Positions 1 through 17,620 of a stretch of 64,000 nucleotides of DNA are shown piece by piece. The notes beneath the pieces were generated by a model. That model was not told where the DNA came from. It did not search any database and was given only the letters and a program-made list of their open reading frames with translations. Numbering within the stretch: position 1 is the stretch's first letter; each line of letters opens with the position of its first letter. This DNA comes from Cenarchaeum sp. (GTDB taxonomy: Archaea > Thermoproteota > Nitrososphaeria > Nitrososphaerales > Nitrosopumilaceae), in NCBI GenBank assembly GCA_965212015.1, contig OZ243037.1, positions 320,001 to 384,000 of the forward strand, in the 5' to 3' direction. The position numbers and the translations under genes were made by a program.

Positions 1-807
1 GGAACCGGGTTTGTAAAGTGCGTGTCCGACTATGGCCGGGTTTGGTTTCCGTCATTATACACAAAAAGAGTACACGGAATCTGGACGGGCAAAATATCGG
101 AGGCCGTGGGCATGAAGGCAGTGAAAATGCTAAAGACTGCGGGCGTCTCTGCCGTGAGGCCCATAACCCGGGGAACGCCGGATCCCAGATACCAGAAGCA
201 GGTGGAGCTCTTGATAAAAGAGTCGATGAGGCAGATTCGAAACAGCGCAAAGACCCCGGTGGATGCGGACGAAAAAATCAGGATTGTGGCCGGGCTGCCG
301 TATCACGCGTTCGGGCACAGGGACGCCATAACCCGCATAGTCAAGAAAACGCTCAATGCCGAAAAATGCTCGGTGGTGGCCCAGGCGTCCGGCACGCTGG
401 TGGACCTTGGCCGGAGCAGCGGAATCGTGGTATCCATCGGGCAGGGAACCACGGAGATTATAGTGGTGGACGATTACGAGGTAATAGACGGCGACAGCTC
501 GCAGTGGGCGTCGGATTTTGTCACAAAAAAAATCGGCAGGTTTGCCCACCTGGATGCGGACCTGCTGGGCCAGAACAGGGAGCTCTGCCGAAAATACTCG
601 CGCATTCTGGCGGAAAACCTGATAGGCGAGATACAGGACATGGCGCAAAGCTATGGCGGCCAGTACCCGATAGCACTGTCAGGCGGGGGCCTCTTGATTC
701 ACGGGGTGCGCGACGTGCTGGAGGCGGGCCTGAAGGACTTTGAGATTATGGTTCCAGAAGATCCGGTAATGAGCAACGCAATAGGCCTGTACAAGCTGGT
801 GGAATAA
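1..807 (+). CDS. Actin-fold ATPase (MreB/MamK/ParM-like), 5' end truncated by the window
   Basis: Frame +1 reads GTGFVKCVSD from base 1 (phosphate-1 [D]xGTGFVK). Also phosphate-2 SIGQGTTEI, adenosine motif LSGGG and connect-2 EDPVMSNAIG. Confidence 0.85.
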   Translation, partial: GTGFVKCVSDYGRVWFPSLYTKRVHGIWTGKISEAVGMKAVKMLKTAGVSAVRPITRGTPDPRYQKQVELLIKESMRQIRNSAKTPVDADEKIRIVAGLPYHAFGHRDAITRIVKKTLNAEKCSVVAQASGTLVDLGRSSGIVVSIGQGTTEIIVVDDYEVIDGDSSQWASDFVTKKIGRFAHLDADLLGQNRELCRKYSRILAENLIGEIQDMAQSYGGQYPIALSGGGLLIHGVRDVLEAGLKDFEIMVPEDPVMSNAIGLYKLVE

Positions 808-812
808 ACCCG

Positions 813-3800
813 ATGGGCTCTAAACGCTGGAGGCTTGCAAACAAGAGAAAACAAAAGGGGCAGCTTGACTGTGTGAAAAAATTCCTGCCCGCCGCAGACG
901 GGCTCTCGGCGGTATCGGTGATTGTTCCAATACTGATGGACAAAAAGGAGGCAATTGCGGCCGCCGGCGGCCTGGTCAGCGCGGGCATCCGGAGCTTTGA
1001 GCTGTGGTGGGACGGGGACGAGAAAAGCATGCAGTTTGTCCTGGTCGGCGAGTCGCGCGACATTTCAAACTTTAGGCAGGCCTTTATCAACATGTATCCG
1101 AACGCGAAATTCGAGAATCTTGATCACACCGTACCAAAATGGTTTGAGCGCGATGAACAGTACCAGATATTCGACGTCGGGACGTATCACGGCCACTATA
1201 CGGCGGTATTTGACAAGGCCAAGGCGCACCAGATAATCTCACAGATTACAAACACCGTACAGCTCTCAAAGTTTGCCTGGATACAGTTCGTGTTCCGAAA
1301 CTATGCCTTTAACAAGTTTTTGCGCAGGCACGTAACGCGGCTCGACGAAAAGGCAAGGGAGATAAAATCCGGAAACTATCTGAGCACGACTGACATTCTC
1401 ATGCACCCGGACAAAAAGCCGCACGCGCATCCGGAGCAGGGGTACGACTTTGGAAACAACTATCCGGGGCTACAAAAGCACGCCACGTTAAAGACGCAGA
1501 GCTCCCACCTTCTCATGAGCATACGCGGCATGATAAGGAGCGATTCGGAGATAAACCTGCACTTTGACGAGATAGAGGCGCTTCCGGTGGAGAGCATCCA
1601 CTCTGGCCACGAGCACCTTACAAAATTCAGGTACAAGTACGAGAATTTTTGCGCCAAGGATCCCAAAAAGACCCGCGTGCGAGTCGAGGGACAAAAGGAC
1701 CGCCCGCAGAGAATGGACATGTTCGAGTCCCGGCTCCTGCCGGATCCGGAGCCGTTTTTGGACTCGGCAATCGGGAAATACTTTGACAAGGGGATTTTCA
1801 GCTATCGCGAGAGGGAGTCCCTGCCGTTTCTCATACTGAATCTTTCGGAGATGCCGCTGTTTGTCCACCTGCCAAACGCGACAACGCCAAATATCGGCAC
1901 CACCCGCGGCGTCACGCTTCCGGCAAAGCCGTCAGAAAAACAGGGGGCAAACATCGGGTTCTTTGGGATAAAAAAGGACTATGACTGGCAGTCGATATGG
2001 GGGATTACGGCAAAGTCAAAGGACATTGATGCGGCGGTAATATCGCCTACAGACTTTGCCAACCATTTCTACTGCGTGGGCGCCTCGGGCTCCGGCAAGA
2101 CGTCCCTTATCCGCCTTTTTGCCAAGCACCTGGAGGCGTGGAACAAAAACAAGGAGTTTCCAAACGCGTTCATATACGTGGATCCAAAGGGGGACGACTC
2201 TCACAAATTCGTCAAGCAGTGCGCCCCGGAGACGGTGCGCGGCGGCATGGTCCATTTTCTGGATCCCCAGGAGACGAAATTCTCGATAAACCCGCTGGAG
2301 CTGCCGCCGTACCAGGAGAACGAGCGCGAGGAGGTAGTCTCTAGATACGTCGGCTATTTCATGAAGACCATAGAGGAGTGGTACCAGCAGTCGACAAGCT
2401 TTGTGCAGATGGAGAGGATATTTCGCGCGCTTTTGTTTTACATATACATGAGGCACGACTCGCCCACGTTTCTTGACATACACGACATCATACTGCGGCT
2501 ACAAAGCAACGGAAACAATGCGCTGCCGTATATAATCAAGATTTTTGGCACGCCGGATCCGGAGATGCTGCAGGCCCTTGAGAGCATTTCCGGGCTAAAG
2601 GGTGACGCCTTTGTGCCCCTGCTCAACAGGATAGAGCAGTTTGCCACGGATCCCATACTAAAGAGAATGTTCTCGGTCAGGCACGGAACGGTCGACTTTG
2701 ACGAGATTATACAGCCAGGAAGCTGTACCATTGTCCGGATATCCCCGCTCAACATGCCCCACCACGTCCAGCCGCTTGCCATGCAGGCGTTCATACTAAA
2801 GCTGTGGTTTACCATACAGGAGCGCGCAAACAAGGTACAGGACGAAAAGGACCGCACACAGGTGATTCTGGCGCTCGACGAGTTCCAGATAGTCAAGGAT
2901 CTGCAGGTATTACAGCTCATGCTGGAGCAGGCAAGATCCCTGGGACTCGGGCTTGTCCTGTCACACCAGACCACCGAGCAGATAAGCGACAAGCAGCTCG
3001 GGATAATATCGGGCAATTCTGGAACCCAGCTTGTCGGAAAGGTAAACGGAAAGGACGCAGGAAGGCTCTCCCAGATCTGGGATCCACAGTTCCAGGGCGA
3101 GCTCCTGCAGCAGCTGGCAAGCCAGGAATACTTTCACTGGACCGTGCGCGAAAAGGCGCCGCTGGGCCAGGAACAGCCTCCCCCGACACAATTCTGGCTG
3201 AACCGGCCGCCCGACCTGCTCACTACGGGCGCCGAATACGACGCGTTTGTGGCATCCCAGCTTGCCAAATACGGCAGGGGCGCAGTCGAAGAGTCGTCCA
3301 TAAAGCAGATTGCCGCAGAGAGGAACAAATGGCTTGAAAGCATAACAGTCCGGTTTCCCAGCCAGATTGAATGGAGAATAATGCTGATGCTGTTAAAGGG
3401 GCCCATGCGGCAGGCAGACATGGTGGACAGGCTCAAGGTCTCAAACAGGTCCGAGGTGTTCGACGCCCTCGGCAGTATGGAGTCCAGAAAGATCGTGGTC
3501 AGGACTGATGATACCAGAACCTCCCCGTACGAGCTTGCCAGAAAGGCGAAAAAAGACTATTTTAAACACGATTCAGGCGAGATTGGATCCGCAGAAGAGA
3601 TAGAGGAGGTGACAAAAAGGGTAGTCGAGATGTACCAGAAAAGGGAATCCTTTGTAGCCGTGGCCTCCCAGAAGATAAGAAAGGGCCGGGACAGGACGGA
3701 TCTGGTGGCCTATGACTATGATACAGAGACGGCCATCAGCGTGGAGATAGAGTCGGTCAGCGAGGTACAGAGCCACAAGGAGCACGTCCGGTACAACATG

Positions 3801-3923
3801 GTAAAGTGGAGGGACATGGGCTTTCAGGAATGCCATGTCTGGTCCAAGAGCCCCAGGATCCGGCAGATCTACGAGAGCCTCGATCCCGAGGAGAAACTCG
3901 GGGTCAGAACGGGCGTCATTTGA
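813..3923 (+). CDS. VirD4/TraD/HerA-family (FtsK-HerA) ATPase with C-terminal wHTH and PD-(D/E)xK-like domain
   Basis: Walker A GASGSGKT, YVDPKGD, INPLE, Walker B LALDEFQ, arginine-finger region ARSLGLGLVLSHQ. C-terminus has an HTH-like segment (GPMRQADMVDRLKVSNRSEVFDAL) and RTDLVAYD...SVEIES. Confidence 0.8.
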   Translation: MGSKRWRLANKRKQKGQLDCVKKFLPAADGLSAVSVIVPILMDKKEAIAAAGGLVSAGIRSFELWWDGDEKSMQFVLVGESRDISNFRQAFINMYPNAKFENLDHTVPKWFERDEQYQIFDVGTYHGHYTAVFDKAKAHQIISQITNTVQLSKFAWIQFVFRNYAFNKFLRRHVTRLDEKAREIKSGNYLSTTDILMHPDKKPHAHPEQGYDFGNNYPGLQKHATLKTQSSHLLMSIRGMIRSDSEINLHFDEIEALPVESIHSGHEHLTKFRYKYENFCAKDPKKTRVRVEGQKDRPQRMDMFESRLLPDPEPFLDSAIGKYFDKGIFSYRERESLPFLILNLSEMPLFVHLPNATTPNIGTTRGVTLPAKPSEKQGANIGFFGIKKDYDWQSIWGITAKSKDIDAAVISPTDFANHFYCVGASGSGKTSLIRLFAKHLEAWNKNKEFPNAFIYVDPKGDDSHKFVKQCAPETVRGGMVHFLDPQETKFSINPLELPPYQENEREEVVSRYVGYFMKTIEEWYQQSTSFVQMERIFRALLFYIYMRHDSPTFLDIHDIILRLQSNGNNALPYIIKIFGTPDPEMLQALESISGLKGDAFVPLLNRIEQFATDPILKRMFSVRHGTVDFDEIIQPGSCTIVRISPLNMPHHVQPLAMQAFILKLWFTIQERANKVQDEKDRTQVILALDEFQIVKDLQVLQLMLEQARSLGLGLVLSHQTTEQISDKQLGIISGNSGTQLVGKVNGKDAGRLSQIWDPQFQGELLQQLASQEYFHWTVREKAPLGQEQPPPTQFWLNRPPDLLTTGAEYDAFVASQLAKYGRGAVEESSIKQIAAERNKWLESITVRFPSQIEWRIMLMLLKGPMRQADMVDRLKVSNRSEVFDALGSMESRKIVVRTDDTRTSPYELARKAKKDYFKHDSGEIGSAEEIEEVTKRVVEMYQKRESFVAVASQKIRKGRDRTDLVAYDYDTETAISVEIESVSEVQSHKEHVRYNMVKWRDMGFQECHVWSKSPRIRQIYESLDPEEKLGVRTGVI

Positions 3924-4293
3924 TCCGGAGTTTTTCCAACCTGCTGGGTTCGGGCTTTTCCTGATCCTCGGATTCTTCTGAATCTTCCGGCTCTTCCGGG
4001 GGTGCGGTTTTTTTGGCGGGACGCCTACCGTGCCGCACCGTCTTTTTCTCGCTGCGCGACTGTTCCATGATTGACTCCATGGCCGCCTCGTACTTGTCCA
4101 TCTCGCCGATGTCCTTTTTTGTCAGCTCGCGTCCCAGCGGTTTTAGCATTACCTTGCCGTTGGTTCCGTAGAACCGTATGGTCTGGCCTGCCTCCACCCC
4201 GAGTATGTCCACCATTCTGGTCGGAACCGTAATGACATAGGATCCGTTGTCCTTTTTCTGCAGTATTCTTTCGTGTACCTTTTTGCCATCCAT
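3916..4293 (-). CDS. AbrB/MazE/SpoVT-type DNA-binding protein with acidic/basic tail
   Basis: GSYVITVPTRMVDILGVEAGQTIRFYGTNGKVMLKP matches the swapped-hairpin consensus. Confidence 0.85.
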   Translation of the reverse strand: MDGKKVHERILQKKDNGSYVITVPTRMVDILGVEAGQTIRFYGTNGKVMLKPLGRELTKKDIGEMDKYEAAMESIMEQSRSEKKTVRHGRRPAKKTAPPEEPEDSEESEDQEKPEPSRLEKLRIK

Positions 4294-4329
4294 TACCCAC
4301 AAAAGTGCTGTTGCATAAAAGGCCGATTA

Positions 4330-4477
4330 TCGACACCGAAAGCGTCGATTGTCGCCCCCGAAAGCGCTTTCGACTCTTTTTTGTCGACACCGAAAGCGTC
4401 GATTGTCGCCCCCGAAAGCGCTTTCGACTCTTTTTTTATGGCACAAAAGGAGTCGAAAACCGACACCGAAAGCGTCG
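4330..4477. repeat. Two 54-bp direct repeats plus a partial third copy and an inverted repeat (candidate ori/oriT or operator)
   Basis: tcgacaccgaaagcgtcgattgtcgcccccgaaagcgctttcgactctttttt at 4330 and 4384; cgacaccgaaagcgtcg again at 4461; ccgaaagcg core occurs five times; inverted repeat tttcgactc...gagtcgaaa at about 4422-4458. Confidence 0.9.
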
Positions 4478-4715
4478 CCATAATGCGGCTAGGCGCGGAT
4501 TTTCCCTTCGCATTTACCTTACAAAACAAAAAAACGAATCCTGATCAGCAAAGACATTAAGTCTTTTTCCCAAGGCTCCCTAGCGGGAGCCTCACACCAA
4601 ACCACGTCGGGCTATAGGCCAGCCCGGCTACCCAAGGACCATCCCGGGCCGGCAGAGCCGGCCCTCTTGCCCAGAACCATCCGGGCCGGAGTCCCGGCCC
4701 GGACAGGATACGAGT

Positions 4716-4994
4716 CCGTACAGGTCACCAAGGCCCGTACAGGTCACCAAGGCCCGTACAGGTCACCAAGGCCCGTACAGGTCACCAAGGCCCGTACAGG
4801 TCACCAAGGCCCGTACAGGTCACCAAGGCCCGTACAGGTCACCAAGGCCCGTACAGGTCACCAAGGCCCGTACAGGTCACCAAGGCCCGTACAGGTCACC
4901 AAGGCCCGTACAGGTCACCAAGGCCCGTACAGGTCACCAAGGCCCGTACAGGTCACCAAGGCCCGTACAGGTCACCAAGGCCCGTACAGGTCAC
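4716..4994. repeat. Perfect tandem array, 19-bp unit ccgtacaggtcaccaaggc, 14 full copies plus 13 bp
   Basis: Read directly; no spacers and no mismatches seen; unit length is not a multiple of 3. Confidence 0.97.
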
Positions 4995-5041
4995 ATGATC
5001 AAGGGGGGCTAGTTTTAATCATAAAAACCACCAAACTGGTG

Positions 5042-6367
5042 TTATTTCCCACGGGTCTTTGTCAAATATCTTTTACGCGCCTTTACCTCCGGCCTCTGAC
5101 CGTATTCTTTCTGGTATTTCTGGATCTTTTTCTTCACCTCCGGCCTCTGGCGGTTTTTTCTGATCCGCGCCTTTACCTCCGGCTTTTGGTCGTATTTTTT
5201 CTGATATTCCAGCTGACGATTCCTCACCTCCGGCCTTTGAAGGTATTTTCTGAGCCTTTCTTTTACCTCCGGCCTATGGCGATACTTTCTGATCCGTTCC
5301 TTTACCTCCGGCCTTTGAAAGTACCTTCTGCTCTGTTCCTTCACCTCCGGCCTTTGAAAGTATTTCCTGATCTTTTCCTTGACCTCCGGCCTATGGTTGT
5401 ATTTTTTCATGTATTTCTGGCGATTTTTCCTCACCTCCGGCCTCTGACGGTATTTCCTGGACTTTTTCTTTACCTCCGGCTTCTGAGAATATTCTCTCGC
5501 GTATTTCCTGATCCTTTTCTTTACCTCCGGCCTCTGGCGATATTCTAGATCGTATTCCCTCTTTAGCTTCCTCGTCTCCGGCCTCTGAAGATATTTACTG
5601 AGCCTTTTCTTTACCTCCGGCCTCTGGCGGTATTCCCTCTTGTACTTCCTGAGATTTTTCTTTACCTCCGACCTCTGAGAATATTCCCTCGCGTATTTCT
5701 TGATCCTTTTCTTTACCTCCGGCCTCTGGCGGTATTTCCTGACCCGCTTCTTTACCTCCGGCCTCTGGCTGTATTCCTTTTGCCGCTTCCTTACCTCCGG
5801 CCTCCGGATATATTTTTTCTGTCGTTCCAGATTCTGTTTTTTTACCTCCGGCCTCCGGCTGTATTCTTTCTGGTATTTCTGGATCCACTTCTTTACCTCC
5901 GGCCTTTGGCGGTTTTTTCTGAGCCTTTCTTTTACCTCCGACCTCTGACGGTATTCCCTGACCCATTTCTTTACCTCCGACCTTTGCTGGTATTCCCTCT
6001 GGTATTCCCGGTGATATTTTCTGAGCTTTAGCCGTCTGGCCTGAAATTCCTTTTGCTTTTTCCGATAGTATTCCCACTGGTACTTTCTGAGTTTCTCCTT
6101 GGCCGATACACTGGATTTTGCCTTGGATTTCCCACGGGTATTTTTTGCCTCCGATTTTGCCCGGCTTTTCCTGTTTTTGGCCAGTATCTTCTTCCGATTT
6201 TTCCGATAGTATTCCCTCTGGCGTCTCAGCCTCTCCAGCCTTTTTTTGGCTGATTCCTTGGGTTTTGCCAATGTGTGATGTCTTGTTTGGGAATTATTAT
6301 TGATTGTTTTTTGGGCATGGTTTATTTGCCGGGTTTGTAATGGGGCAATAATGGCGGGATTTTCCAA
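5042..6367 (-). CDS. Highly basic helical repeat protein (21 x RPEVK-type units of 13 or 17 aa), putative nucleic-acid binding
   Basis: Y-x-Q-R-P-E-V-K motif recurs with 8- or 12-residue linkers; the DNA period of 39/51 bp keeps frame. True start uncertain (probably downstream of 6367). Confidence 0.75.
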   Translation of the reverse strand: MENPAIIAPLQTRQINHAQKTINNNSQTRHHTLAKPKESAKKRLERLRRQREYYRKNRKKILAKNRKSRAKSEAKNTRGKSKAKSSVSAKEKLRKYQWEYYRKKQKEFQARRLKLRKYHREYQREYQQRSEVKKWVREYRQRSEVKERLRKNRQRPEVKKWIQKYQKEYSRRPEVKKQNLERQKKYIRRPEVRKRQKEYSQRPEVKKRVRKYRQRPEVKKRIKKYAREYSQRSEVKKNLRKYKREYRQRPEVKKRLSKYLQRPETRKLKREYDLEYRQRPEVKKRIRKYAREYSQKPEVKKKSRKYRQRPEVRKNRQKYMKKYNHRPEVKEKIRKYFQRPEVKEQSRRYFQRPEVKERIRKYRHRPEVKERLRKYLQRPEVRNRQLEYQKKYDQKPEVKARIRKNRQRPEVKKKIQKYQKEYGQRPEVKARKRYLTKTRGK

Positions 6368-6800
6368 AATCTATTGCATAGGCGGGCTTGGAGGCCATAT
6401 GGGGGCAGACGGCATAAACCCGATTCACTTTCAAATCCTCATAGGAAACAGCGACAGAATGTGGCTGGAGTCAAGATATTTTGACGATAAATTCAAGCCG
6501 ATTGGAAAAATCCATATCATAGTTCCAAAGGCGCCCGATGATCCAAACGCGTTGATAGACGCCTGTATCGCATTCGCGCCGGATTTGTTTGAAGGCCTGC
6601 CGTCCATGAAAGAGACGAAGGAGATTTTGGCAGAGCATACAAGGCTGGATTTTGGCCTGAGGGCAGACGAAATTCCCGACATCTGGAAGACGTTGAGAAA
6701 AGAGGCCATGCCGATTTTTGAGAAACTGCACATTTTTGCAGGTCCATTAACCGAACTTGATGTGGACAAAAAATATCTTGCCAAACCAGGGTGGTATTGA
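6351..6800 (+). CDS. Hypothetical protein
   Basis: Globular-looking ORF MAGFSKIYCIGGLGGHMGADG...; ATG at 6351 preferred over the ORF-track start. Confidence 0.65.
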   Translation: MAGFSKIYCIGGLGGHMGADGINPIHFQILIGNSDRMWLESRYFDDKFKPIGKIHIIVPKAPDDPNALIDACIAFAPDLFEGLPSMKETKEILAEHTRLDFGLRADEIPDIWKTLRKEAMPIFEKLHIFAGPLTELDVDKKYLAKPGWY

Positions 6801-6903
6801 GAGCATTAGGCGTGTCTGTTTCAACCCTCCATGAATATGGGTCTCCGACATTTCCGTAATTATCCAAAAAACCCCCCTTAAATCAAATTAAAACTAAAGT
6901 AGT

Positions 6904-7140
6904 ATGGAAGAAAACCAAGTGGTGTATCCAAGAAACATCCAGCACGTCAGCGGCTCGTTTATGATGAACATTCCGTCCCCTATAGCAAGGAAATTGCGTC
7001 TTGTCAAGGGCCAGTGTATTATGGTGGGCGAGTCCGACGGGAGGATAATCATCAAGCCCGTGGACATGGGGGTGGCAAAACGGATTCTTGGTTATGGCAC
7101 GATACCGGCAAAACCGGATGGCATTCCGGCCTCTCAATAG
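6904..7140 (+). CDS. AbrB/MazE/SpoVT-type DNA-binding protein
   Basis: GSFMMNIPSPIARKLRLVKGQCIMVGESDGRIIIKP. Confidence 0.8.
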   Translation: MEENQVVYPRNIQHVSGSFMMNIPSPIARKLRLVKGQCIMVGESDGRIIIKPVDMGVAKRILGYGTIPAKPDGIPASQ

Positions 7141-7247: not shown

Positions 7248-8207
7248 TTAAACATATTTTTTTGATATATGATATTTCTCTGTTTTGATTATATAGTCAG
7301 AATTATCAAAAATAGTTTTAGATGGATCTTGTATGGTTATGATGCGCTCTGATGAACCATGTGTTCTGATATTTATTCCAGGAACAAAGTAAATCCAATA
7401 TCTGTCTCCGTGCTCTTTGGATTTCGCTAATTCATTGGAGGAAAGATAAAAATCTAAATCCAATCCAGACGAACCCTTGACTTCAATATAGATTTTATGT
7501 ATATGGCCATTGTTACTTGTAAACGATTCAATATCATACCCAGCATTAGCAAATCTATCGCTGATTCGGTCTATTTTTGATGCTTCTTCTGTGTGACCTG
7601 CATCGGCAAGTCTTTTCTGTTCAAAGGCAAGAACCAATTCCTCCGCTATGTTTCCTATTATTTTCTGATTTTCTAACTGTGCTTCCAACATTTTTTGTGT
7701 AATCTTTCTATCATTTTGTCCTATCAACTGGATATATTTTGGATTGATCTCGACTTTGCCGTTTTGTTTTTCAAATAAACCTGTTTCATACAAAATTGGT
7801 AGTATGTCTGGAATTGTGACAATTCCGTATATTTCTTGTTTTGGATACCACATACCGTGATTGTCATCAGTATGAAATTTGTCAAATATTTGAAATATTT
7901 CTCTGTTAATTTGTGGTCCAAAAAACATATTTTTGATAAAGAAATCTTTGAATTCTGGTGATTTGTTCCCGTAAAGTTCTAATGTTTGTACGCCTAAATT
8001 TGTCAGAGCCATTTTATTATTGTCTATTTTCACAAGGCCAAACAATATGCAAATATTTTTGACATTTTCATAGTTTGGCATTCTGGCCTGCTTGACTGGC
8101 TTTTCTTGAAATGTCTTTTTCACATAATTTCTAAGTGTGGGTTTGTGTTCTTCGAATAACCTCACGGTATCAAGCATTTCACATATGTTATGAATGGTCA
8201 GACTCAT
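7248..8207 (-). CDS. DUF3883 (NO VEIN C-terminal, PD-(D/E)xK) nuclease-domain protein with N-terminal wHTH-like region
   Basis: GNIAEELVLAFEQKRL...AGYDIESF...IYIEVKGS...FYLSSNEL...YWIYFV. Confidence 0.85.
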   Translation of the reverse strand: MSLTIHNICEMLDTVRLFEEHKPTLRNYVKKTFQEKPVKQARMPNYENVKNICILFGLVKIDNNKMALTNLGVQTLELYGNKSPEFKDFFIKNMFFGPQINREIFQIFDKFHTDDNHGMWYPKQEIYGIVTIPDILPILYETGLFEKQNGKVEINPKYIQLIGQNDRKITQKMLEAQLENQKIIGNIAEELVLAFEQKRLADAGHTEEASKIDRISDRFANAGYDIESFTSNNGHIHKIYIEVKGSSGLDLDFYLSSNELAKSKEHGDRYWIYFVPGINIRTHGSSERIITIQDPSKTIFDNSDYIIKTEKYHISKKYV

Positions 8208-10155
8208 TGGTTTGGTATACCTTCTTTAGATATTCTATAGTTTGCTTATAGTCCAAGTTAAATTCTTTTAAATTCATATTGTCTGATTCGGGATTTATTT
8301 CTAGTGACTGTAACATATCGTCCTGTAAAGCATCTAGCATATCCCTCCATTTTTCATTAAGCCTTCTATTTATAACTTCATCTATAGTGTTTTTTGCTAT
8401 TATCAAATGATAATTAACCTCTACAGATCTATTCATGCCTATTCTGTGTATTCTGTCCATTGACTGCATATATTGAGCCCCATTAAAGTTCCTGTCTAGG
8501 TATATTGCATGGTTACAAATAGTTTCTCCTCTTAAATTCTTGTGCAAGGAGACTGATTCCCCTAAAGACGCAGGTGATGCTATTAAAATTTTAAATTCTG
8601 GTTTATTTTTGAAATTTTTAATAAGTTCATCTCTATTCCCAGATTCGGATGTGTCTCGTGTTACCTTTCCGTTGATTACTACTGGATTAAATTCCCGTAG
8701 CAGATTTTCAAAAATATACATGTTGTGAATGAATGAATTCCATATGATCACTTTGTGTCCTTTATTGACCAAATCTTTGGCCAAAGCAATTGCTTTTGCA
8801 ATCTTTGTCGGGAGTTCGTACTCTGTATAATTCTTGATTTGATCTATCAACGATGTGGAAATTTCAGGTAATTTATCTATTTTACATTCAAAACCAAATT
8901 CTTCAGAAAACGTATCCTTATCGATGCCAAAATCAAGTGATTTTTCTTGCAAAAGAGTAGGATTTGAAGCAGTTTGGAGCAATCTGACCATTTTTGCCAT
9001 TCTGAATTTTTGTAATTGTCCCTGATCGTGTATGGACAATGCATCATGTTCTTGAAGAGTTTTTGCAGCTATTGCATCGTAAATATCTTGTTGCACCTTG
9101 CCTAATGGTACTGGTATGGGATCCCATTTGGGCTCTGGAAGCTGTAAATCATCTTTCTTTATCCTGCAAAACAGGCTATTCAAAACAGGCTGATATTTTC
9201 CTATCCCTGATTTTTTTGCATAATTGTTATAAATCATTTGATTATCCAGTGGATAGTTGTTTGGCCATAGAAACGTGATTTGAGTCCAGAGGTCTTTTGC
9301 GTTATTAGGCATGGGTGTCCCCGACAGAACAATCCTTCGTGTTGCATATGGTGCAACATTGAGTGCGGTAGATGCCCATCTTCGCAGATCTGGGCTTTTG
9401 ATGTTATGGGATTCGTCTATGATCAATACAGTCTTCCACCTCTGCATGAACTGTTTTAGTTCATGTTGACGATTCATGGCGGTATTGAAATGCATTAGAA
9501 ACAAATCAAATGATTCACCAAACAAGTGGAATTTGTTTGAAATATCTCCTGTAATTCTCAGGGATTTTACACTATTGCCAAAACAACTTTGATACTCTTC
9601 CTCCCAGGGGAGAAATGAAGCAGTCGGTCCGATCACCAGGATCTTTTCCACCTTTTTGTCATCCTGCCATCTGGAAATGGCTGCATACGTGATGGTGGTC
9701 TTGCCACTTCCGGGAACGGAAAAATTAGCCGCGTTACCCAGGGTAATCATGTGTTCTACGGACTCATTTTGGTATTCCATGAGTTTTCTCTTAAACGAAT
9801 CAGATATGTTGGGAAAATGCTCTGTTTTGTTCTTGATCATCTCGCCGGCATTTTTTGCATCCTCAAACGATGTATCGGTACGCTTTATTGTATCCATTTT
9901 GTCCATAATGGCATTGCATAAATCTACGTTTTCTTTGCCAAACTCTTTGACGAAATAAGTAACCGTCCATTTCAGGATTTTTCCAAATTTTACTAGATCA
10001 GAGTTATTATAAACATAGATGTCGCCGTCCTCGTCATAACCCCCTACACGAAGAGTATCTCGAATTTTATAATCAATCGCGTAATCATCCGTAGGATGAA
10101 ATTTAACCGTTATTTTATTTTGTTCATCGATACATATATTGTGCAATTCCATCAA
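8188..10155 (-). CDS. SNF2-family (SF2) helicase/translocase
   Basis: LMEYQ, PGSGKT, LIIDESHNIK, VLSGTPMPN, QSMDRIHRIG motifs. Confidence 0.92.
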   Translation of the reverse strand: MMELHNICIDEQNKITVKFHPTDDYAIDYKIRDTLRVGGYDEDGDIYVYNNSDLVKFGKILKWTVTYFVKEFGKENVDLCNAIMDKMDTIKRTDTSFEDAKNAGEMIKNKTEHFPNISDSFKRKLMEYQNESVEHMITLGNAANFSVPGSGKTTITYAAISRWQDDKKVEKILVIGPTASFLPWEEEYQSCFGNSVKSLRITGDISNKFHLFGESFDLFLMHFNTAMNRQHELKQFMQRWKTVLIIDESHNIKSPDLRRWASTALNVAPYATRRIVLSGTPMPNNAKDLWTQITFLWPNNYPLDNQMIYNNYAKKSGIGKYQPVLNSLFCRIKKDDLQLPEPKWDPIPVPLGKVQQDIYDAIAAKTLQEHDALSIHDQGQLQKFRMAKMVRLLQTASNPTLLQEKSLDFGIDKDTFSEEFGFECKIDKLPEISTSLIDQIKNYTEYELPTKIAKAIALAKDLVNKGHKVIIWNSFIHNMYIFENLLREFNPVVINGKVTRDTSESGNRDELIKNFKNKPEFKILIASPASLGESVSLHKNLRGETICNHAIYLDRNFNGAQYMQSMDRIHRIGMNRSVEVNYHLIIAKNTIDEVINRRLNEKWRDMLDALQDDMLQSLEINPESDNMNLKEFNLDYKQTIEYLKKVYQTNESDHS

Positions 10156-11378
10156 ACCTCAAATTTTTTCATTAATTTTTCCACGTGTGATGAAATTTTT
10201 TTTATTAAAGATATCGCTTCTGAAGGAAGCTCTGTAATAGGATCATCTATTAAAGGACGAAGATTTTTTTCCGCACGGCTTAGTAGAAGCAATTCCTTTC
10301 CCTCATTATTACTGACATCTAATATGTCTTTGGCGTTAATAAAATGTGCATAAGTTTCAGAAAAATCACGATTTTTTGTTTCAAATTCATCCATTATGGC
10401 GTGTGTATCCTTTTCAATTGTTTCCTGAAGATTTGGTTCTTGCGAGTCCTTTGGTTTTAATTTAGAACCAGCATCTACGATCTCAGTTATGGCATCTCGA
10501 AGGTTTTTCAGCACCATATCGTTGATTCTGCGAAGTTCCAAGTGCTGAATGTCTTCATGGATCAACTGAAATGCAACATATTTTATCTTGGTGATTTGAT
10601 CTGGATCATAGTCGCTTTTTTCACATGATAAAATTATTTGTCTGAGGTTGATAAAATGCTCGACCCTATTTTTTACATTCGAATATTTTTGTGGTGTTCC
10701 CATAAATTTGAGATATTGTTCAAGCAAATCCAATAGTATGAGTTTCTTTGCTATGTCTTCTTCCTCATAACCATAAAGTGTACTCGCGATTGTCTTTATG
10801 CTCAATCCGGCTTGCGTTCCTTCGCGTATCTTTAAAAGCTCGTTGACGGGACCATATTTGATAATCTCATCTTTGCCTAATTGTATCCCTGCTTCTAGCT
10901 TCCATAGATCCTCTGGGGATATGGACTCCTCTAATCTTGCCACATCCAGATATTTCCATTTCTGTTCTCCTGTTTCATCATGTAGGTATGATATTATTGA
11001 CATTCTCCTATTTCCATCAATGACATAACCGTCCTGTGTGATTATTCCATAGTTCCATTGCCCTCGAATTCTGAGATCGTCCTTGGTCCTGTCCGTCTCT
11101 ATTTTATCCAAGCCCAACAAAAGATTTTTTATCTTGACTGCGTCTTTTGGGTTTTCAGGGTTGAGGGAACCGCCTTCATGTTTTTCAAGCTCCTTGTATT
11201 CTGCTGCAAATCGACCGTTCCGAATATTGTAAAATAGCATGTCGATTGGCAGTCTGTACACGTATAGTTCTTTTCTTGTTCCATGTATGGATATCGGGAA
11301 AGAACCGCTGAGTTTGGAGTTTGGATATTTTTCGACATATTCGTCAATACGGGCCTTGTTGTTGGAATTCAGCTCCAT
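10152..11378 (-). CDS. ParB/Srx-like N-terminal domain protein (paralogue B)
   Basis: LFYNIRNGRF...GQWNYGIITQDGYVIDGNRR; ParB arginine patch. Confidence 0.8.
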   Translation of the reverse strand: MELNSNNKARIDEYVEKYPNSKLSGSFPISIHGTRKELYVYRLPIDMLFYNIRNGRFAAEYKELEKHEGGSLNPENPKDAVKIKNLLLGLDKIETDRTKDDLRIRGQWNYGIITQDGYVIDGNRRMSIISYLHDETGEQKWKYLDVARLEESISPEDLWKLEAGIQLGKDEIIKYGPVNELLKIREGTQAGLSIKTIASTLYGYEEEDIAKKLILLDLLEQYLKFMGTPQKYSNVKNRVEHFINLRQIILSCEKSDYDPDQITKIKYVAFQLIHEDIQHLELRRINDMVLKNLRDAITEIVDAGSKLKPKDSQEPNLQETIEKDTHAIMDEFETKNRDFSETYAHFINAKDILDVSNNEGKELLLLSRAEKNLRPLIDDPITELPSEAISLIKKISSHVEKLMKKFEV

Positions 11379-11472
11379 GTGTTACTATACTTTCTATGGC
11401 TTTAAAACGATTTTGCTGTATTTTCACAGAATTGCCGGCTTATTATCCAATAAATGCCCCATATGGCCAAGA

Positions 11473-12666
11473 TTACTGTAAACGGCCAAGTGCATTTTGA
11501 ACCTTTGTGATCAGATCACTGATCGCTGGGCTGCTCATATCACAACTCTCAATGTCGATATTCTCCAGGTTTTTTAATGCACGTTGGAGCAGTTTTTCTG
11601 GCTGTTGTGCCTCAGAACGTGCCTTTAATGAATCCATGCAGTTGTTAAATACGATTCTGGCATCCGTATATTCATCTTTTTTTTCAGCCTCGACTTTCTT
11701 TGCATCTTTTATGGCCAGAGGTTCTGGCATGCAGTATTTTTCCGCTGTCCATAATTCATTTCTTACAGCATCGGTCTTTAGTATCTCTTTGAGTTTTCTG
11801 AAATCTCTTGCGTGCACACCGTCATGAATTAGTTGAAAACCTATGCGTTTTGCTCGTTCCATTTTATCAGGATCAGGATCTAGCTTGTCAAATTCGGATA
11901 GGATTTTTCTTAAATCTATAAAATGTTCATGTATGCCCTTTGCTCGGTTAAAAACTCCCGGATCTTGTATAAAATGCAAGTATTCTGCAATGAGTTTAAA
12001 TTCTTCGAGTTTTGCCAAAATATCTTTTTCGCTGAAACCTCCAAAGAGCTCATTAGCTATCTCTTTGGGACTTAGATCTGCGTCAAATCCTTCCTTGAAT
12101 TTTAACAATTCATTGATAGGTCCATAATGTAGTTGTGGACTGCGGGACAATTGTATGCCAGCTTCAATTTTCCACAAATCTTGAGATGTAACGTTCGGAG
12201 GCAATCTTGCAACTTCAATAAAGTTAAACTCGGAACGGCCGTGAACGGATACCAAGCTAGACAAGACAGCACGTCTTCTATTTCCGTTTATGACATATCC
12301 GTCATGTGTGATTATTCCTGGCTCTCTTTGACCTTTCTGTAGTACATCTTCCTCCAGTATCTTGCTTTGCTTGAGATCAATTTCTAACAAAAGATCTTGG
12401 ATTTTTTTGGAATCTTCTGGTTTTGTTGTATCAAGCTCGCGTTTTTCTAATTTTTTGAGATCAGCATATTCTGCTGCAAATCTTCCGTTTTTAATGTTAT
12501 AAAATGTGAGATTTAATGGTATTCTATAGGTTTTCAAATCCGTCATTTTTCCATGTAGTTTTTGTGTAATGTCTTTTTGCATCTTGCAGTCTGGATTATC
12601 CTGAATATATCGATCAATTTTTTCGGCATTCTGGGCATTATATGACATATTGCTGATCATCAACAT
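11473..12666 (-). CDS. ParB/Srx-like N-terminal domain protein (paralogue A)
   Basis: TFYNIKNGRF...GQREPGIITHDGYVINGNRRR; collinear with 10152..11378. Confidence 0.8.
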   Translation of the reverse strand: MLMISNMSYNAQNAEKIDRYIQDNPDCKMQKDITQKLHGKMTDLKTYRIPLNLTFYNIKNGRFAAEYADLKKLEKRELDTTKPEDSKKIQDLLLEIDLKQSKILEEDVLQKGQREPGIITHDGYVINGNRRRAVLSSLVSVHGRSEFNFIEVARLPPNVTSQDLWKIEAGIQLSRSPQLHYGPINELLKFKEGFDADLSPKEIANELFGGFSEKDILAKLEEFKLIAEYLHFIQDPGVFNRAKGIHEHFIDLRKILSEFDKLDPDPDKMERAKRIGFQLIHDGVHARDFRKLKEILKTDAVRNELWTAEKYCMPEPLAIKDAKKVEAEKKDEYTDARIVFNNCMDSLKARSEAQQPEKLLQRALKNLENIDIESCDMSSPAISDLITKVQNALGRLQ

Positions 12667-12704
12667 CAGAGAATTATAAACTTATCAGTCATTTTGGATG
12701 ATCT

Positions 12705-14900
12705 CTATGCTTTTTGCTGCTCCAATTTGGAGGATCTGCATTTTTTACATTGGGATTGCCGTCTTAGGGAGAATTTATCCTTCTTGGACATTTGCCTATA
12801 TCCGAACAGCTCTTCTATTTTTTTTAGGGTCTGTGCAGAACAGCCACAATTGGGGCACGTTGCCTCAGAACCATCCACATTGGCATATCTTAGTCTGCGT
12901 AAATATACGTCCATTTTGTGTTCTATGACTGTCAACATAAATCTGGTATTCTTTGCCGTTAATTTGGTATTTGTTGATAAAAGTTTCTTTACGGATTCGT
13001 TCAACACCAACACCAGATGATCGCATAATCCCTGAGTCTTGCTCATATTTACCCACGAAAAACAGGTGCAAGAAAATAGATTGTTTGTGGAATACTTGAT
13101 CAAATGTCGATCAACCCTTTCAAAATCTATTTTTGCATTTGAAAACCCATGTATCTCTGACATGATTTGTATTGGTGAGATTTTGACATCAGGCATGATT
13201 GCTATCCGTGATGAAGTTGTTGATCCTTCCACAATCACCGATCTAAAGATTTCATCTTTAGAAATCTGGTAAAGTTTTTTTAAAAATTCAAAATATCTGC
13301 TAGAATGATCTGTGAATTGTTCTATGGGCACATCCAGGGTGATTTCATCTAGCGATCCAATGAACTGAACATCGTTTTTCATGTTGGGTAACAACACTAT
13401 GTCTGCCATGCCTGATTCGTAATTTACAGAATTGATCTTTGCTATAGTACCACTGTGTAATCCATGTCTGATGATTACTACGGAACCTCGTCTTGACGGA
13501 ATTATTGGTGTAATCATGCACCATTCCTTCAATTCATTTTCCGAGATCAATTGGATTGTCTTGTCATTATTCAACAATCTTTGGGTAATGCTGTCTATGG
13601 CTACGAATGATATGACAAAGCCCTGCTCTCCCCGCCCTCGATTTTTTAGTTTGAGACTGAGATCAGATAGTTTGTCCATACTGAGATTTTCGTCGGTCAT
13701 TACCTTGACATATATTATGTTTGATCGTATTTCAAGGCCTAAATTCTGAATTAATGCCTCCTGTTCCTTGGTAAATTTGTAGTTGGACAGATCCACCACA
13801 AAATCAAATTCATCCAATTCGTTTGGAGGATGTGACATCATTGGCGAATTTGTCAGAATCATCCCCGCAATTCTTGTTACTTGATCGTCCTGATCCTCAA
13901 AATTTCCTTTATCCAGATGTTTCAATTCCTGTATAAAGGCTTCTGGGGTTATTTTTCGACCAAAAAACTCCTGATTTTTTTTAGGTTTGCGAGAGTTTGT
14001 AACCATTATTTTCTGATAATGCTTTAATGTAAAATATTCGTCATATGAAGGCCTAAACTTCCAGTATCCTTCTTTTTTGATGATCTTATTATTGACTGAC
14101 AACTCGTGCAGGGATATCTGAAATAGGGTTTCGGGCATAAGCGCTAGAATCGGAATCTTGACCTTGATGATCGACTGTAGATCCTGATATGTTATTCCCT
14201 CTCTGTTGCGTATGGTGTTTAGGATGTAATCCTGTATTTCTAGCTGGTGCTTTTTGAGCCGAAATTTTCCAGAGTCACCGTATTCCAAAAAACCCTTTTC
14301 TTTGAGCTCGTCAAGTATTAAATTTGTCTGATTTTCTATGACATCTTTGCTCTGTATGGCAATTGATGTGTGTGGTGCAAAAACCATCCTTTCAAAATCC
14401 GCTATTGCTCCCGGCATTTCATGCAATATTTTTTTTCCGTCTGTGAAATCATTCACATTCGAATACAGGTAAAATATCACTATGGATCTTAAAACATTAT
14501 GCATGATCTTGTTCTTTATTGTGTGAAGAAATTTTGTCAGGACGACCTGCAGAAATTGGTATCTGTTGGCCAATCTTTTGTTTGTCAGATTTATTTCTCT
14601 GCTCTGCGAGGTTTTTTGTGTAGAGCGTCGCTTTTTTGGAATCTTGAGGACGCTTAAGAGGTTCATATATTCCACGTATCCGGATAAATGAAATTTTTCC
14701 GTGAGTGCCTTGGCATACTCTCCGCCAACATACATCTCTAGAAATTCCGACAGATCTACAAAAGGAAATCTTGCGTCGATCTGTTCCAGGATGGATTTGA
14801 ATTCATTATCGTAGATATCCATTTTTAAACCGTCAATCGCCTGTTGCAGTTTTTCTATCAAAGGATCGGCCTTCTCGAGGAACGACATGGCGTAAAACAC
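12705..14900 (-). CDS. Multidomain protein: wHTH-like regions, restriction-endonuclease(Mrr)-like fold, KOW, SWIM Zn finger, C-terminal Zn ribbon
   Basis: KOW-like GSVVIIRHGLHSGTIAKINSVNYESGMADIVL; SWIM FSCTC...GLCDHL; CPNCG...LFGYR...QSQCKKCR; Mrr-like EFDFVVD...IIYVKV...QGFVISF...IQLISENEL. Confidence 0.6.
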   Translation of the reverse strand: MFYAMSFLEKADPLIEKLQQAIDGLKMDIYDNEFKSILEQIDARFPFVDLSEFLEMYVGGEYAKALTEKFHLSGYVEYMNLLSVLKIPKKRRSTQKTSQSREINLTNKRLANRYQFLQVVLTKFLHTIKNKIMHNVLRSIVIFYLYSNVNDFTDGKKILHEMPGAIADFERMVFAPHTSIAIQSKDVIENQTNLILDELKEKGFLEYGDSGKFRLKKHQLEIQDYILNTIRNREGITYQDLQSIIKVKIPILALMPETLFQISLHELSVNNKIIKKEGYWKFRPSYDEYFTLKHYQKIMVTNSRKPKKNQEFFGRKITPEAFIQELKHLDKGNFEDQDDQVTRIAGMILTNSPMMSHPPNELDEFDFVVDLSNYKFTKEQEALIQNLGLEIRSNIIYVKVMTDENLSMDKLSDLSLKLKNRGRGEQGFVISFVAIDSITQRLLNNDKTIQLISENELKEWCMITPIIPSRRGSVVIIRHGLHSGTIAKINSVNYESGMADIVLLPNMKNDVQFIGSLDEITLDVPIEQFTDHSSRYFEFLKKLYQISKDEIFRSVIVEGSTTSSRIAIMPDVKISPIQIMSEIHGFSNAKIDFERVDRHLIKYSTNNLFSCTCFSWVNMSKTQGLCDHLVLVLNESVKKLLSTNTKLTAKNTRFMLTVIEHKMDVYLRRLRYANVDGSEATCPNCGCSAQTLKKIEELFGYRQMSKKDKFSLRRQSQCKKCRSSKLEQQKA

Positions 14901-15785
14901 CTATGTGTACTGCATGATGTTGGCCATGACAGTCTTTCCTTTCTTCTTTCGTGTAGGTGTTTTTTTAACCTCTGGCTTTTTTAAATCTTGAATTCTCTGG
15001 ATAGCATGATTGTAATATTCCGGTGCTGCCTCCATTCCAACAAAGTGTCTGTCTAGAGACATGGCGGCCACGGCGGTGGTGCCGCTGCCCATGAACGGAT
15101 CAAGCACCACATCGTTTTTGGCCGTAAACAGCTTGATAAACCAGCTTGGGAGCGCCATGGGAAATGCCGCACTGTGCTGGACGTTACTGCACTCGGTGGC
15201 AATGTGTATTACGTTTGTTGGATAAGCTTTGCGCTTGTTGATCCAATTGGAAACATTTTTTCCAAAACCGCTCTCATTCTCTGCCTCGTCTCGCCTCAAG
15301 TCAGTCTCGGACAAATTTGCCAGTCTGGTTTTTGCCCAAGAACCCATCGGGACCTTTACGGAATCCTGGTACATTTTGAACTTTTTCTGTTTGGTAAAGT
15401 GAAGACATCGCTCCCACGCATCCCTGAATCGATTGGGCCATTTTCCGGGATAGCAGTTCTTTTTATGCCAGACATATTCCTCCGTCCACAGCCAGCCCTG
15501 TTTTTTCATTTCTAATATAAGCTCCAGCACATACGTGCCGCGTTCTCCATTTACCGTCCGTTCTTTTATGTTTAACACAAACGATCCGCGGTTCTTTAGA
15601 ACTCGGAACATCTCTTTGGATATGGGAAGAAACCAGTCCACATATTCGTCAATTCCCACGCCTTGATATGCGCCTTTTCTGTTGTCGGCATATGGTGGAG
15701 ACGTAACGATGAGATCGACGGATTTGCCCGGGATTTTTCTCAGCCTCTCCAGACAGTCATCGTTATAGATGACGTCAAGCCTCAC
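14901..15785 (-). CDS. Site-specific DNA methyltransferase, beta class (likely m4C)
   Basis: Motif IV LIVTSPPY precedes motif I VLDPFMGSGTT; HSAAFP. Confidence 0.93.
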   Translation of the reverse strand: MRLDVIYNDDCLERLRKIPGKSVDLIVTSPPYADNRKGAYQGVGIDEYVDWFLPISKEMFRVLKNRGSFVLNIKERTVNGERGTYVLELILEMKKQGWLWTEEYVWHKKNCYPGKWPNRFRDAWERCLHFTKQKKFKMYQDSVKVPMGSWAKTRLANLSETDLRRDEAENESGFGKNVSNWINKRKAYPTNVIHIATECSNVQHSAAFPMALPSWFIKLFTAKNDVVLDPFMGSGTTAVAAMSLDRHFVGMEAAPEYYNHAIQRIQDLKKPEVKKTPTRKKKGKTVMANIMQYT

Positions 15786-16495
15786 GGTGTATCCTCCAAA
15801 ATATCATTCATGATCCCATCAGCATCATTGACATATATCTTTTTTATTTCCTTTTCGAGACTGCCTATCTTTTGCCCCATGACCTGTTTTAGCGATCCCA
15901 CGTCTGGATCGACATAGTTCTTATCTACCTTATAAGCGATTTTTAGGATCTGATCGTAGCAGTTCGGATGTCCCGAGACAAAGTCCCAGAAAGGCCTGCC
16001 TATCAGTACCTGGACATTACGCATGTGTTTTTTGACTATGGAGCCCATCAGATCCTCGTCCCCATAACAGGCTGCAAATATGGGTACGGAGTCGGGCTCG
16101 AGTTCCCTGGTGCGTAAAAGCACCTTTTGGATGCTTTGCGTGACCTGTATGTTGTGATGAGAGGCCGATTTTATTATCATGTTGTAGATTTTGCCATCTC
16201 GGCTTAGCCGTGCAGTTAGACCGGGAAGCGGTTTTTCGTTACAAAACTCCTTGGCGACATTCTGTAATGTGGAGCCAAAACTGGTTACTATGCCGCGTTC
16301 CAATCTCTGCCTTATCAGCCATTCTGCAAGATCATGTGATGTCCGAATTCCCAGTTGGTTGCTTATGGCAGCGATCAGAAATGGGTTGATTTCGATGTCA
16401 CTTACCGGCATGTTCATGAGCGTATTGATCTTGTTATTGAGAAAGTTCTCAAAGTGCATTTGGATGTTTAGGCCGATATTGTTGGGTATTGACAT
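15782..16495 (-). CDS. PmeII/EcoO109I-like type II restriction endonuclease homologue, possibly catalytically degenerate
   Basis: INPFL...LERGIVTSFGSTLQ...IKS...CYG...GRPFWDFVSG pattern; overlaps the MTase start. Confidence 0.7.
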   Translation of the reverse strand: MSIPNNIGLNIQMHFENFLNNKINTLMNMPVSDIEINPFLIAAISNQLGIRTSHDLAEWLIRQRLERGIVTSFGSTLQNVAKEFCNEKPLPGLTARLSRDGKIYNMIIKSASHHNIQVTQSIQKVLLRTRELEPDSVPIFAACYGDEDLMGSIVKKHMRNVQVLIGRPFWDFVSGHPNCYDQILKIAYKVDKNYVDPDVGSLKQVMGQKIGSLEKEIKKIYVNDADGIMNDILEDTP

Positions 16496-17150: not shown

Positions 17151-17620
17151 CGTTGGGCTTATGCTATTCTGCTGTTTAAAGTTTTACCCGCAATCCAGAG
17201 GTGGTTTGTTTACCGTCATGAAATGCAAAAACCCTAGTGAGTTTTGGCGGCAGGATCATGTCATGTCATAAAACATTCTGCACAAAAAACTCTTGATTCC
17301 GGTGGTTTTAATTTGAATCCGTGACCTGCCGCCATCTTCCACATTAGAACGAATTACAATTGATCAACAGGATTAAAAACTCGTAACACAAATAAAAAAA
17401 CACGCCGTAACAAACAACAATATCCTGCAGTGTATGTGCACAAAAAAACTTGCAAACGTGCAACAGTAAACAAAAAACAACGAAACGCAATGTTAAAATA
17501 ACAACTCTTCCATATGGATCACATGGATTGCAAGTACGCAACAACATGGTTGCAAAATTTTTCATGCAAATCCCCGGAGCTCTAAAAATGAACGTCACAA
17601 ATCCCGATAAAACCAAAATG

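Follow-up and report, generated by a model that had tools for sequence, protein, structure and literature searches.

Candidate actin-based DNA segregation with a proposed AbrB-type adaptor on an integrated element of Cenarchaeum sp.

An integrated mobile element of Cenarchaeum sp. carries a gene module that we read, with slightly better than even confidence and on computation only, as plasmid-style actin segregation: an archaeal variant of ParMRC-type partition in which an AbrB-type protein would be the adaptor. The window analyzed here is a stretch of 64,000 nucleotides (nt), positions 320001-384000 of a single-contig 1.76-Mb genome (contig OZ243037.1, assembly GCA_965212015.1) that is 99.74% complete. 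Window positions 1-7140 are the conserved core of the element, which is ~19.2 kb long and spans genome positions 318401-337643. The original prediction had proposed a thaumarchaeal actin-driven partition or DNA-transfer system here. All the features that it listed are present where it had placed them: an actin-like ATPase, a second ATPase, two AbrB-type proteins, 54-bp repeats, a 279-bp array, and a basic repeat protein. They are above chance level, and a homologous module recurs elsewhere in the genome and in 13 loci of eight other genomes. The term “thaumarchaeal” is also borne out: the host has an archaeal amoA (window 37208-37756; Pfam Archaeal_AmoA, expectation value [E] 9.4e-119), and homologues come from records named Nitrosopumilus, Nitrosopumilaceae, or Thaumarchaeota. 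The features on which the argument turns are the following (window coordinates, strand, description).

1-807, plus strand: actin-like ATPase; Pfam MreB_Mbl E 8e-9, 35.2 bits, above the 27-bit cut-off
813-3923, plus strand: ATPase of 1036 amino acids (aa); TrwB_AAD_bind E 7.4e-6, 25.5 bits, above the 20.5-bit cut-off
3916-4302, minus strand: probable AbrB/MazE-fold protein of 128 aa, the proposed ParR-like adaptor; PF04014 E 7.1e-5, 23.1 bits, just under the cut-off of 24.7
4330-4474, no strand: element-specific 54-bp iterons with short palindromes, the proposed operator and centromere-like site; they begin 28 nt upstream of the start of the AbrB open reading frame (ORF) at 4302
4500-4715, plus strand: conserved leader, with a box from 4508 and GC hairpins at 4574-4591, 4609-4625, 4646-4664, and 4683-4700
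4716-4994, plus strand: perfect 19-bp array of 14.7 copies; 279 bp, 100% matches, TRF score 558
5042-6367, minus strand: RPEVK basic repeat protein of 441 aa, with its 3' end 48 nt from the array; no Pfam or NCBIfam family
17620-17702, minus strand: tRNA-Ser(CGA), intact copy, the distal border of the element

In the proposed mechanism, AbrB dimers would bind the iterons before their own gene once the element is excised, and these iterons would serve as both operator and centromere. The C-terminal peptide of AbrB would dock in the cleft between actin subdomains IA and IIA. Actin filaments would then move or separate copies of the element, as in ParMRC-type (type II) partition and in srpMRC. 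The 1036-aa ATPase would act on the same DNA as a ring-type translocase of double-stranded DNA, with a role in transfer, resolution, or loading. The 19-bp array would be part of a separate, genome-wide leader-array module and not the centromere of the actin.

The element is integrated at the 3' end of the tRNA-Ser gene. The 3' 24 nt of this gene (17620-17643) are repeated at genome positions 318401-318423, which marks both ends of the element. The gene order starts immediately upstream of the window with a tyrosine integrase that has a zinc ribbon (Phage_integrase domain, E 9.9e-15) and continues with actin-like ATPase, TraG-like ATPase, convergent AbrB gene, iterons, hairpin leader with array, and defence cargo. 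A second, diverged element, with 71% nucleotide identity to the first, sits at tRNA-Asp and has an 18/18 direct repeat at its borders. It is arranged as integrase, a 323-aa ORF, actin, ATPase, convergent AbrB, iterons, leader, and array. Both elements thus have all the marks of a tRNA-targeting tyrosine-recombinase element, namely the integrase, the flanking direct repeats, and a tRNA 3' end as target. Amino-acid identity between the two is 71% for the ATPase, 64% for the actin, 47% for the integrase, and 29% for the AbrB.

The actin-like protein belongs to the actin family but shows no clear affinity to the plasmid ParMs, and structural comparison and a profile search of PDB sequences agree on this. 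Its ORF is cut by the start of the window; the full gene encodes 279 aa and begins 33 nt upstream (genome 319968), 50 nt past the integrase stop. The AlphaFold2 (AF2) model has a confident filament-type actin fold (pLDDT 94.2). When models were aligned to 48,161 chains with VIA-align, Z-scores for the actin were 26.5 for MreB (root-mean-square deviation 2.8, 263 residues aligned), 26.0 for BeeR, 24.4 for Dh-cParM1, and 24.2 for actin, followed by crenactin (24.0), Ta0583 (23.6), R1 ParM (21.2), and AlfA (18.7). The profile search returned MreB (6e-10), Arp2 (1.4e-9), and MamK (3e-8). The best fold neighbours are filament-forming actins, and the protein itself would presumably polymerize. Some homologues already carry the NCBI name “ParM/StbA family protein”; the actin assignment itself is therefore not new.

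The AbrB protein ends in a conserved tail that is predicted to dock on the actin. Its gene is convergent with the ATPase gene and overlaps the end of that gene by 8 nt, and the protein has a long linker followed by a C-terminal LEKLRIK tail. A precomputed PF04014 match is present in 35 of 106 AbrB homologues, several of which NCBI names AbrB/MazE/SpoVT. We compared 11 loci with a convergent AbrB gene, nine of them fetched from other genomes and two from the host genome itself. Although these AbrBs are only 27-44% identical to the window's copy, all 10 distinct sequences end in L-E/D-K/R-L-R/E-I/M/L-K. Among the 106 homologues found by profile search, a loose pattern detects the terminal motif in 93 and a strict pattern in 46; the count is somewhat circular, as the search profile itself held the motif.

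We predicted the complex of the actin with AbrB residues 56-125, alongside three controls. The score was 0.73, against 0.02 for the best control; the mark used for calibration was reached by 58/80 solved complexes and by 2/110 mismatched pairs. Runs agreed in at least 42% of contacts. The predicted contacts set AbrB residues 117-124 against actin residues 104-147, 164-169, and 274-276, that is, the IA/IIA cleft, the site at which the ParR peptide binds ParM. The contact surface is predicted to include L107, V134, and other actin positions that are invariant or nearly so. These models suggest that AbrB may bind the actin through its tail.

Iterons and AbrB diverge together. In the window, the 54-bp repeats comprise 2.0 perfect copies at 4330-4436 and 2.3 copies at 88%. 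Tandem iterons lie 28-141 nt upstream of the AbrB start in 11/11 loci, with units of 22-63 bp whose sequences vary by locus. They are similar only where the AbrBs are similar: in the host's second element and locus L038 (ATGCA-rich sites), in L045 and L046, and in L043 and L044. The original prediction had left the adaptor as either AbrB or the RPEVK protein. On the conserved tail, the predicted docking, and the iterons, AbrB appears to be the better candidate, while we found no evidence linking the RPEVK protein to the actin.

The module recurs in synteny within the host family. Database searches gave 152 cluster representatives for the actin, 188 for the ATPase, and 106 for the AbrB. In a census of 400 genomes of the class, comprising 223 of the host family and 177 of other families, the actin was found in 41/223 host-family genomes and 0/177 others, with up to six matches per genome; two of the 41 positive genomes (G131 and G326) are unpublished. 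The ATPase was found in 39/223 and 15/177, respectively. By hand comparison of the lists, 10 of the 11 other genomes with an actin match at E <=1e-100 also hold the ATPase. We fetched 20 loci, hand-picked from 74 listed places with long contigs favoured. In the 13 close-actin loci (56-67% identity, in eight other genomes), the ATPase is adjacent in 12, with a continuous match over at least 99% of its length in seven and a split or shortened one in five. A convergent AbrB gene is detectable in nine of these 13 loci and in both of the host's own. The tandem array is absent from 3/11 actin-ATPase-AbrB loci.

The proposed mode of working is closest to that of ParMRC systems (R1 parMRC, pSK41 parMRC, and AlfAB/parN), with which the module shares its main parts. 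In both, an actin-fold ATPase and a small dimeric DNA binder are combined in one module, tandem repeats lie in the promoter region of the binder, and a C-terminal peptide of the adaptor is placed, here by prediction, in the IA/IIA cleft of the actin. In contrast to ParMRC, however, the proposed adaptor here would have an AbrB/MazE swapped-hairpin fold, whereas ParR has a ribbon-helix-helix fold. The actin is also no closer to plasmid ParMs than to MreB, and the host is archaeal and the element integrated. To our knowledge, no actin-based (type II) DNA partition system of Archaea has been studied experimentally. A literature search, covering listings and the beginnings of abstracts, returned no described archaeal actin-adaptor-centromere system, nor one in Nitrosopumilaceae or their integrated elements.

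Among integrative elements, the closest parallel is srpMRC, which is described as stabilizing SXT/R391 integrative and conjugative elements; it lies in the integrase operon and is needed only for the excised form (PMC4489591). As in the reading proposed here, a ParM-like system is encoded next to the integrase of an integrative element. Unlike the present module, srpMRC occurs in bacteria as part of a complete conjugative element that has a type IV secretion system (T4SS), and no domain can be recognised in its SrpR; we found no T4SS here, and the proposed adaptor is AbrB-type. The element also resembles the cryptic integrated elements of Thaumarchaeota, for which integration in tRNA genes, a tyrosine integrase, restriction-modification cargo, the lack of a recognisable replication protein, and a median size of 17 kb, near that found here, are reported by Krupovic et al. 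2019 (PMC6563490). The main text of that paper mentions neither actin, MreB, nor AbrB, nor the term “tandem repeat”; its supplementary annotation may list such genes.

If the segregation reading is true, a large family of mobile elements in abundant ammonia oxidizers uses an actin filament with an adaptor of a different fold. The ParR problem would then have been solved independently, by a system compact enough to lend itself to reconstitution. An archaeal actin would also be linked to the TraG-like ATPase of archaeal conjugative plasmids, which is poorly understood, and the maintenance of elements with defence islands in their excised state would be explained.

Several observations weigh against actin segregation with an AbrB adaptor. 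The actin and the ATPase co-occur in only 18 genomes, out of 41 and 39 positives, so that about half of the positive genomes hold just one of them. At the seven distant-actin loci (34-42% identity), six are without the ATPase and one has it in divergent orientation; three of the seven have short AbrB-type genes nearby, from which the tail is absent. No Pfam ParM-type family matched the actin: its best match is MreB_Mbl, and ALP_N reached E 0.0038 and 17.9 bits against a cut-off of 26.3. By structure it is nearest to MreB and BeeR; Dh-cParM1, which is chromosome-encoded, ranks behind them, and plasmid ParMs come far lower. Furthermore, the phosphate-2 motif (SIGQGTTE, residue 153 here) starts with Ser in 50/50 aligned family members. 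Asp is usual at this position in actin-fold ATPases, and the substitution may alter hydrolysis and filament dynamics.

The complex prediction used our own alignments, and the fold of the partner in it is uncertain. A ParM-ParR peptide complex has been solved, and because of this the pass may reflect only a likeness to that structure. In gene order, the module also differs from parMRC in that the 1036-aa ATPase gene stands between the actin and adaptor genes and in that the adaptor gene is convergent. Finally, no replication gene was recognised in the element, and no excised form was seen in the fragmented metagenome contigs examined, which cover the left part of the element and in which assembly breaks at the attachment (att) repeat. 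The episomal stage is therefore an assumption. In the same contigs, the leader shows a raised summed depth, which is normal for a repeat, and one loose contig end after place 408 in run X2 has no match in this genome.

Actins of ~40% identity also occur in another conserved gene set, at loci L049, L050, and L051 (G132 and G162). Upstream, this set has three ORFs, of which the first shows a zinc-ribbon-like N-terminus; downstream is a small, overlapping ORF of 94 aa. None of these ORFs has a Pfam match at E <=0.01.

The 1036-aa ATPase belongs to the FtsK/HerA/VirB4/TrwB class of motors. Its gene starts after a 5-nt gap from the actin gene, and its Walker A motif is at residue 423. The protein has an N-terminal domain without known relatives (1-355), the motor with an all-alpha insert (~356-810), a MarR-type winged helix-turn-helix (~851-921), and a small, conserved alpha/beta C-terminal domain; the last ~90 residues hold many invariant acidic and basic positions, and the pLDDT of the model is 83.6. 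With the N-terminal 356 and C-terminal 107 residues, Pfam gave chance-level matches only; with the 532-aa protein of another locus (locus 3), it gave none. The VIA-align Z-scores of the motor (DndH-C 21.9, VirB4 21.3, TdpA 20.3, HerA 19.5, and TrwB 19.5) are effectively tied. The earlier description of this protein as a VirD4/HerA coupling ATPase is upheld as far as the motor class goes. It finds no backing in a membrane anchor, in a VirB4-type partner, or in the curated family scores, which against NCBIfam were 26.6 bits for conju_CD1115 (cut-off 250) and 18.6 bits for TraD (cut-off 366).

Comparison with plasmids shows the ATPase to be homologous to the ~1000-aa TraG-like proteins of Sulfolobales conjugative plasmids, its nearest plasmid-borne relatives. 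In a tblastn comparison with 72,556 plasmid records, it matched 67, among them 12 from Sulfolobus, two from Saccharolobus, one plasmid of Thermococcus nautili, and pAH1 of Acidianus. Alignments of the best matches run over residues ~340-1036 at 23-29% identity, with E down to 2e-41. In pAH1, the homologue is 1023 aa long and shares with the ATPase the Pfam domains DUF87, TrwB_AAD_bind, and TraG-D_C, and similarity in length and Pfam domains extends to the TraG/VirD4-like ATPases of the pNOB8 family and of T. nautili. The N-terminal ~340 residues do not align with the plasmid proteins. No homologue of the actin was found in the 72,556 records. A small gene convergent with the pAH1 ATPase was considered as a possible AbrB and is not recognisably one. 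An IMG/VR scan with the ATPase profile gave 35 pattern matches, none of which was confirmed.

These relatives keep alive the other half of the original prediction, that the module is primarily a DNA-transfer device. The excised element would then be exported or imported by the TraG-like ATPase, working as a pump as in Sulfolobales conjugative plasmids, with the actin and AbrB delivering or orienting the DNA where transfer takes place. This alternative remains a live rival because of the homology to crenarchaeal conjugative-plasmid TraG-like proteins, even though no VirB4-type partner was found, and overall we think it unlikely. In its favour, the ATPase is the best-conserved module gene between the host's two elements. 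Archaeal conjugation has been noted to proceed without relaxases and may move double-stranded DNA, according to Krupovic et al. 2019 (PMC6563490). By contrast, the Sulfolobales plasmids also carry a second DUF87-type ATPase, nearby in pAH1, which the same source names TrbE/VirB4-like (PMC6563490). Here, AAA_10/VirB4-type ATPases (PF12846) have no match in the 99.74%-complete genome, while control matches were obtained in 12/14 genomes, and the sole DUF87 match is a chromosomal protein far from the elements. VirD4 has an N-terminal transmembrane anchor, and none was found in the ATPase: its most hydrophobic 19-residue stretch (24-42) scores 1.81, with residues 31-38 modelled as a beta strand. 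Among the genes of the 19-kb element, we recognised neither a pilin nor VirB6, nor any other gene of conjugation.

It is improbable, in our view, that AbrB acts solely as a transcriptional repressor or antitoxin-like regulator, with another role for the actin and a false-positive contact between tail and cleft. By their family names, AbrB/MazE-fold proteins are mostly regulators or antitoxins, and iterons before AbrB's own gene fit autoregulation alone. The pLDDT of the partner in the predicted complex is low (48-55), and the calibration mark was passed by some mismatched pairs. A repressor, however, needs no C-terminal peptide kept across proteins of 27-44% identity. Moreover, all three complex controls scored <=0.02, and the predicted contacts fall on conserved actin positions.

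A bolder reading, which we rate as quite improbable, makes the three genes a self-contained archaeal DNA-mobilization machine without a T4SS. AbrB would mark the excised element at the iterons, and the actin filament would carry it to the TraG-like translocase, which would recognise the leader box or the array. Gene-poor relatives that comprise an integrase, iteron-leader modules, and cargo might then hitchhike as satellites, because all elements in one cell share the same leader-array.

The array is a recurrent feature of these elements, uniform within any one genome and separable from the actin system. In the window, a spacer of ~240 nt parts the 19-bp array from the 54-bp repeats. Its unit occurs elsewhere in the genome in 12 copies at the second element, in 12 copies with a 29-bp period near 649.3 kb, and, near 1162.6-1163.4 kb, in three to four copies with a 27-bp period and five with a 29-bp period. 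All five arrays share an identical 16-nt core and have differing spacers (periods of 19, 27, and 29 bp). Each array is preceded by a conserved leader of ~200 nt, made up of a box, an A-rich stretch, and three or four GC hairpins. The leaders of the two actin elements are 85% identical over 172 aligned positions. A genome-wide nhmmer search gave 17 leader matches, which fall at 15 places; tandem runs of five and of three to four stand at 647.7-650.3 kb and 1162.7-1164.0 kb, respectively.

The hairpin stems of the leader show compensatory changes. A C-G pair is replaced by T-A in hairpin 2 in 4/10 aligned paralogous copies, and between genera, at L037, two stem positions of hairpin 1 have changed in compensation. 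RNAalifold recovered only hairpin 1 from ten copies, in an alignment that misplaces hairpin 2. With a relaxed Rfam threshold, the sole match was to a microRNA on the array, at chance level (24.8 bits, against a gathering score of 197). The leader box was considered as a host origin motif and rejected: it is found in the leader copies, and shorter or degenerate patterns occur at five isolated other sites as well.

Beyond the host genome, the array dimer and the leader were not found in 230 other genomes of the host family, apart from weak nhmmer matches of the leader in two G357 loci. The G202 loci instead have perfect arrays of a different, 15-bp unit in the same relative place, and two near-identical, duplicated G226 loci have an array with a 41-bp unit.

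The tandem leader loci of the host (L057 and L058) hold other integrases, iterons, and RPEVK paralogues, and genes for the actin, the ATPase, and AbrB are missing from them. Their iterons are in part similar to those of the two actin elements, and these modules may be satellites or decayed relatives.

For the role of the array, a cis-acting maintenance or loading site is a tentative possibility, and equally tentative is a part in a non-coding RNA from an AbrB-controlled divergent promoter. A slippage-prone satellite without function seems unlikely.

The original prediction had instead taken the array for the centromere, bound by AbrB or the RPEVK protein and coupled to the actin filament, and this fares worst of all the readings. 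Perfect arrays do lie ~0.35-2.6 kb from the AbrB gene, on its upstream side, in 8/11 actin-ATPase-AbrB loci from three genomes; the constant core amid differing spacers suggests a protein-binding site; and an RPEVK paralogue stands beside arrays at 3/4 array-bearing loci. Yet the core is identical beside AbrBs of 29% identity, next to which the iterons differ, and three of the five arrays lie at the two tandem leader loci, away from any actin, ATPase, or AbrB gene. Three of the 11 module loci do without an array, and the second element has an array and no RPEVK gene. No docking motif was seen in the RPEVK protein, although none was looked for. A centromeric role for the array is thus highly improbable, and of the predicted actin-driven partition system what stands, in silico, is a ParMRC-like arrangement with AbrB as the adaptor (tail motif, predicted docking, and iterons at every locus).

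The RPEVK protein is strongly basic (39% K+R) and holds 21 [RK][PS]E[VT][KR] motifs at a spacing of 13 or 17 residues. Paralogues lie at six places in the genome, and arrays adjoin three of these. An atlas search gave a best score of 0.84, too low to be more than a lead. Behind the 15-bp arrays of G202 lies a convergent gene that encodes another basic protein (L045:9192-9836, minus strand; L043:3718-3966). This protein is not an RPEVK homologue and occupies the same position; it has an N-terminal D...EVK motif, which resembles the PD-(D/E)xK nuclease signature, and six perfect 17-aa repeats.

Beyond the RPEVK gene, the window contains three further features of the element.

6300-6800, plus strand: putative gene, an ORF of 166 aa; no recognised family
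6904-7140, plus strand: second AbrB-type protein, 78 aa; Pfam E 0.0045, TIGR01439 E 8.6e-5, under its cut-off
7248-16495, minus strand: low-GC cargo with a NOV_C protein, an SNF2 helicase, three unknown ORFs, a DNA methyltransferase, and an EcoO109I-like restriction enzyme

The best score of the 166-aa ORF in the atlas search, 0.88, again falls below the level that counts as more than a lead. The 78-aa AbrB-type protein is probably a regulator rather than an adaptor, because it lacks the C-terminal tail motif and has no iterons nearby. The cargo looks like a defence island carried by the element. Its methyltransferase is of the N6/N4 type and forms a type II restriction-modification pair with the EcoO109I-like enzyme, while the three unknown ORFs (408, 397, and 731 aa) have no Pfam family. 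GC content is 55.6% in the element core, 38.9% in the cargo or distal half, and 51.1% in the genome.

The second element differs in its cargo, which comprises an SNF2-NOV_C fusion, a DUF1156 methyltransferase, and DUF499. The 323-aa ORF between its integrase and actin genes (genome 761751-762722; L004:13751-14722, minus strand) has counterparts of 60-65% identity in L038 and L047. A motif-based guess that this protein is Top6A/Spo11-like gained no support from Pfam or from a search of PDB sequences. Two further arrays accompany this element: one of 112 bp x 5.1 inside the cargo (genome 746016-746585), and a perfect one of 48 bp x 16 just outside the distal att repeat (genome 743660-744428).

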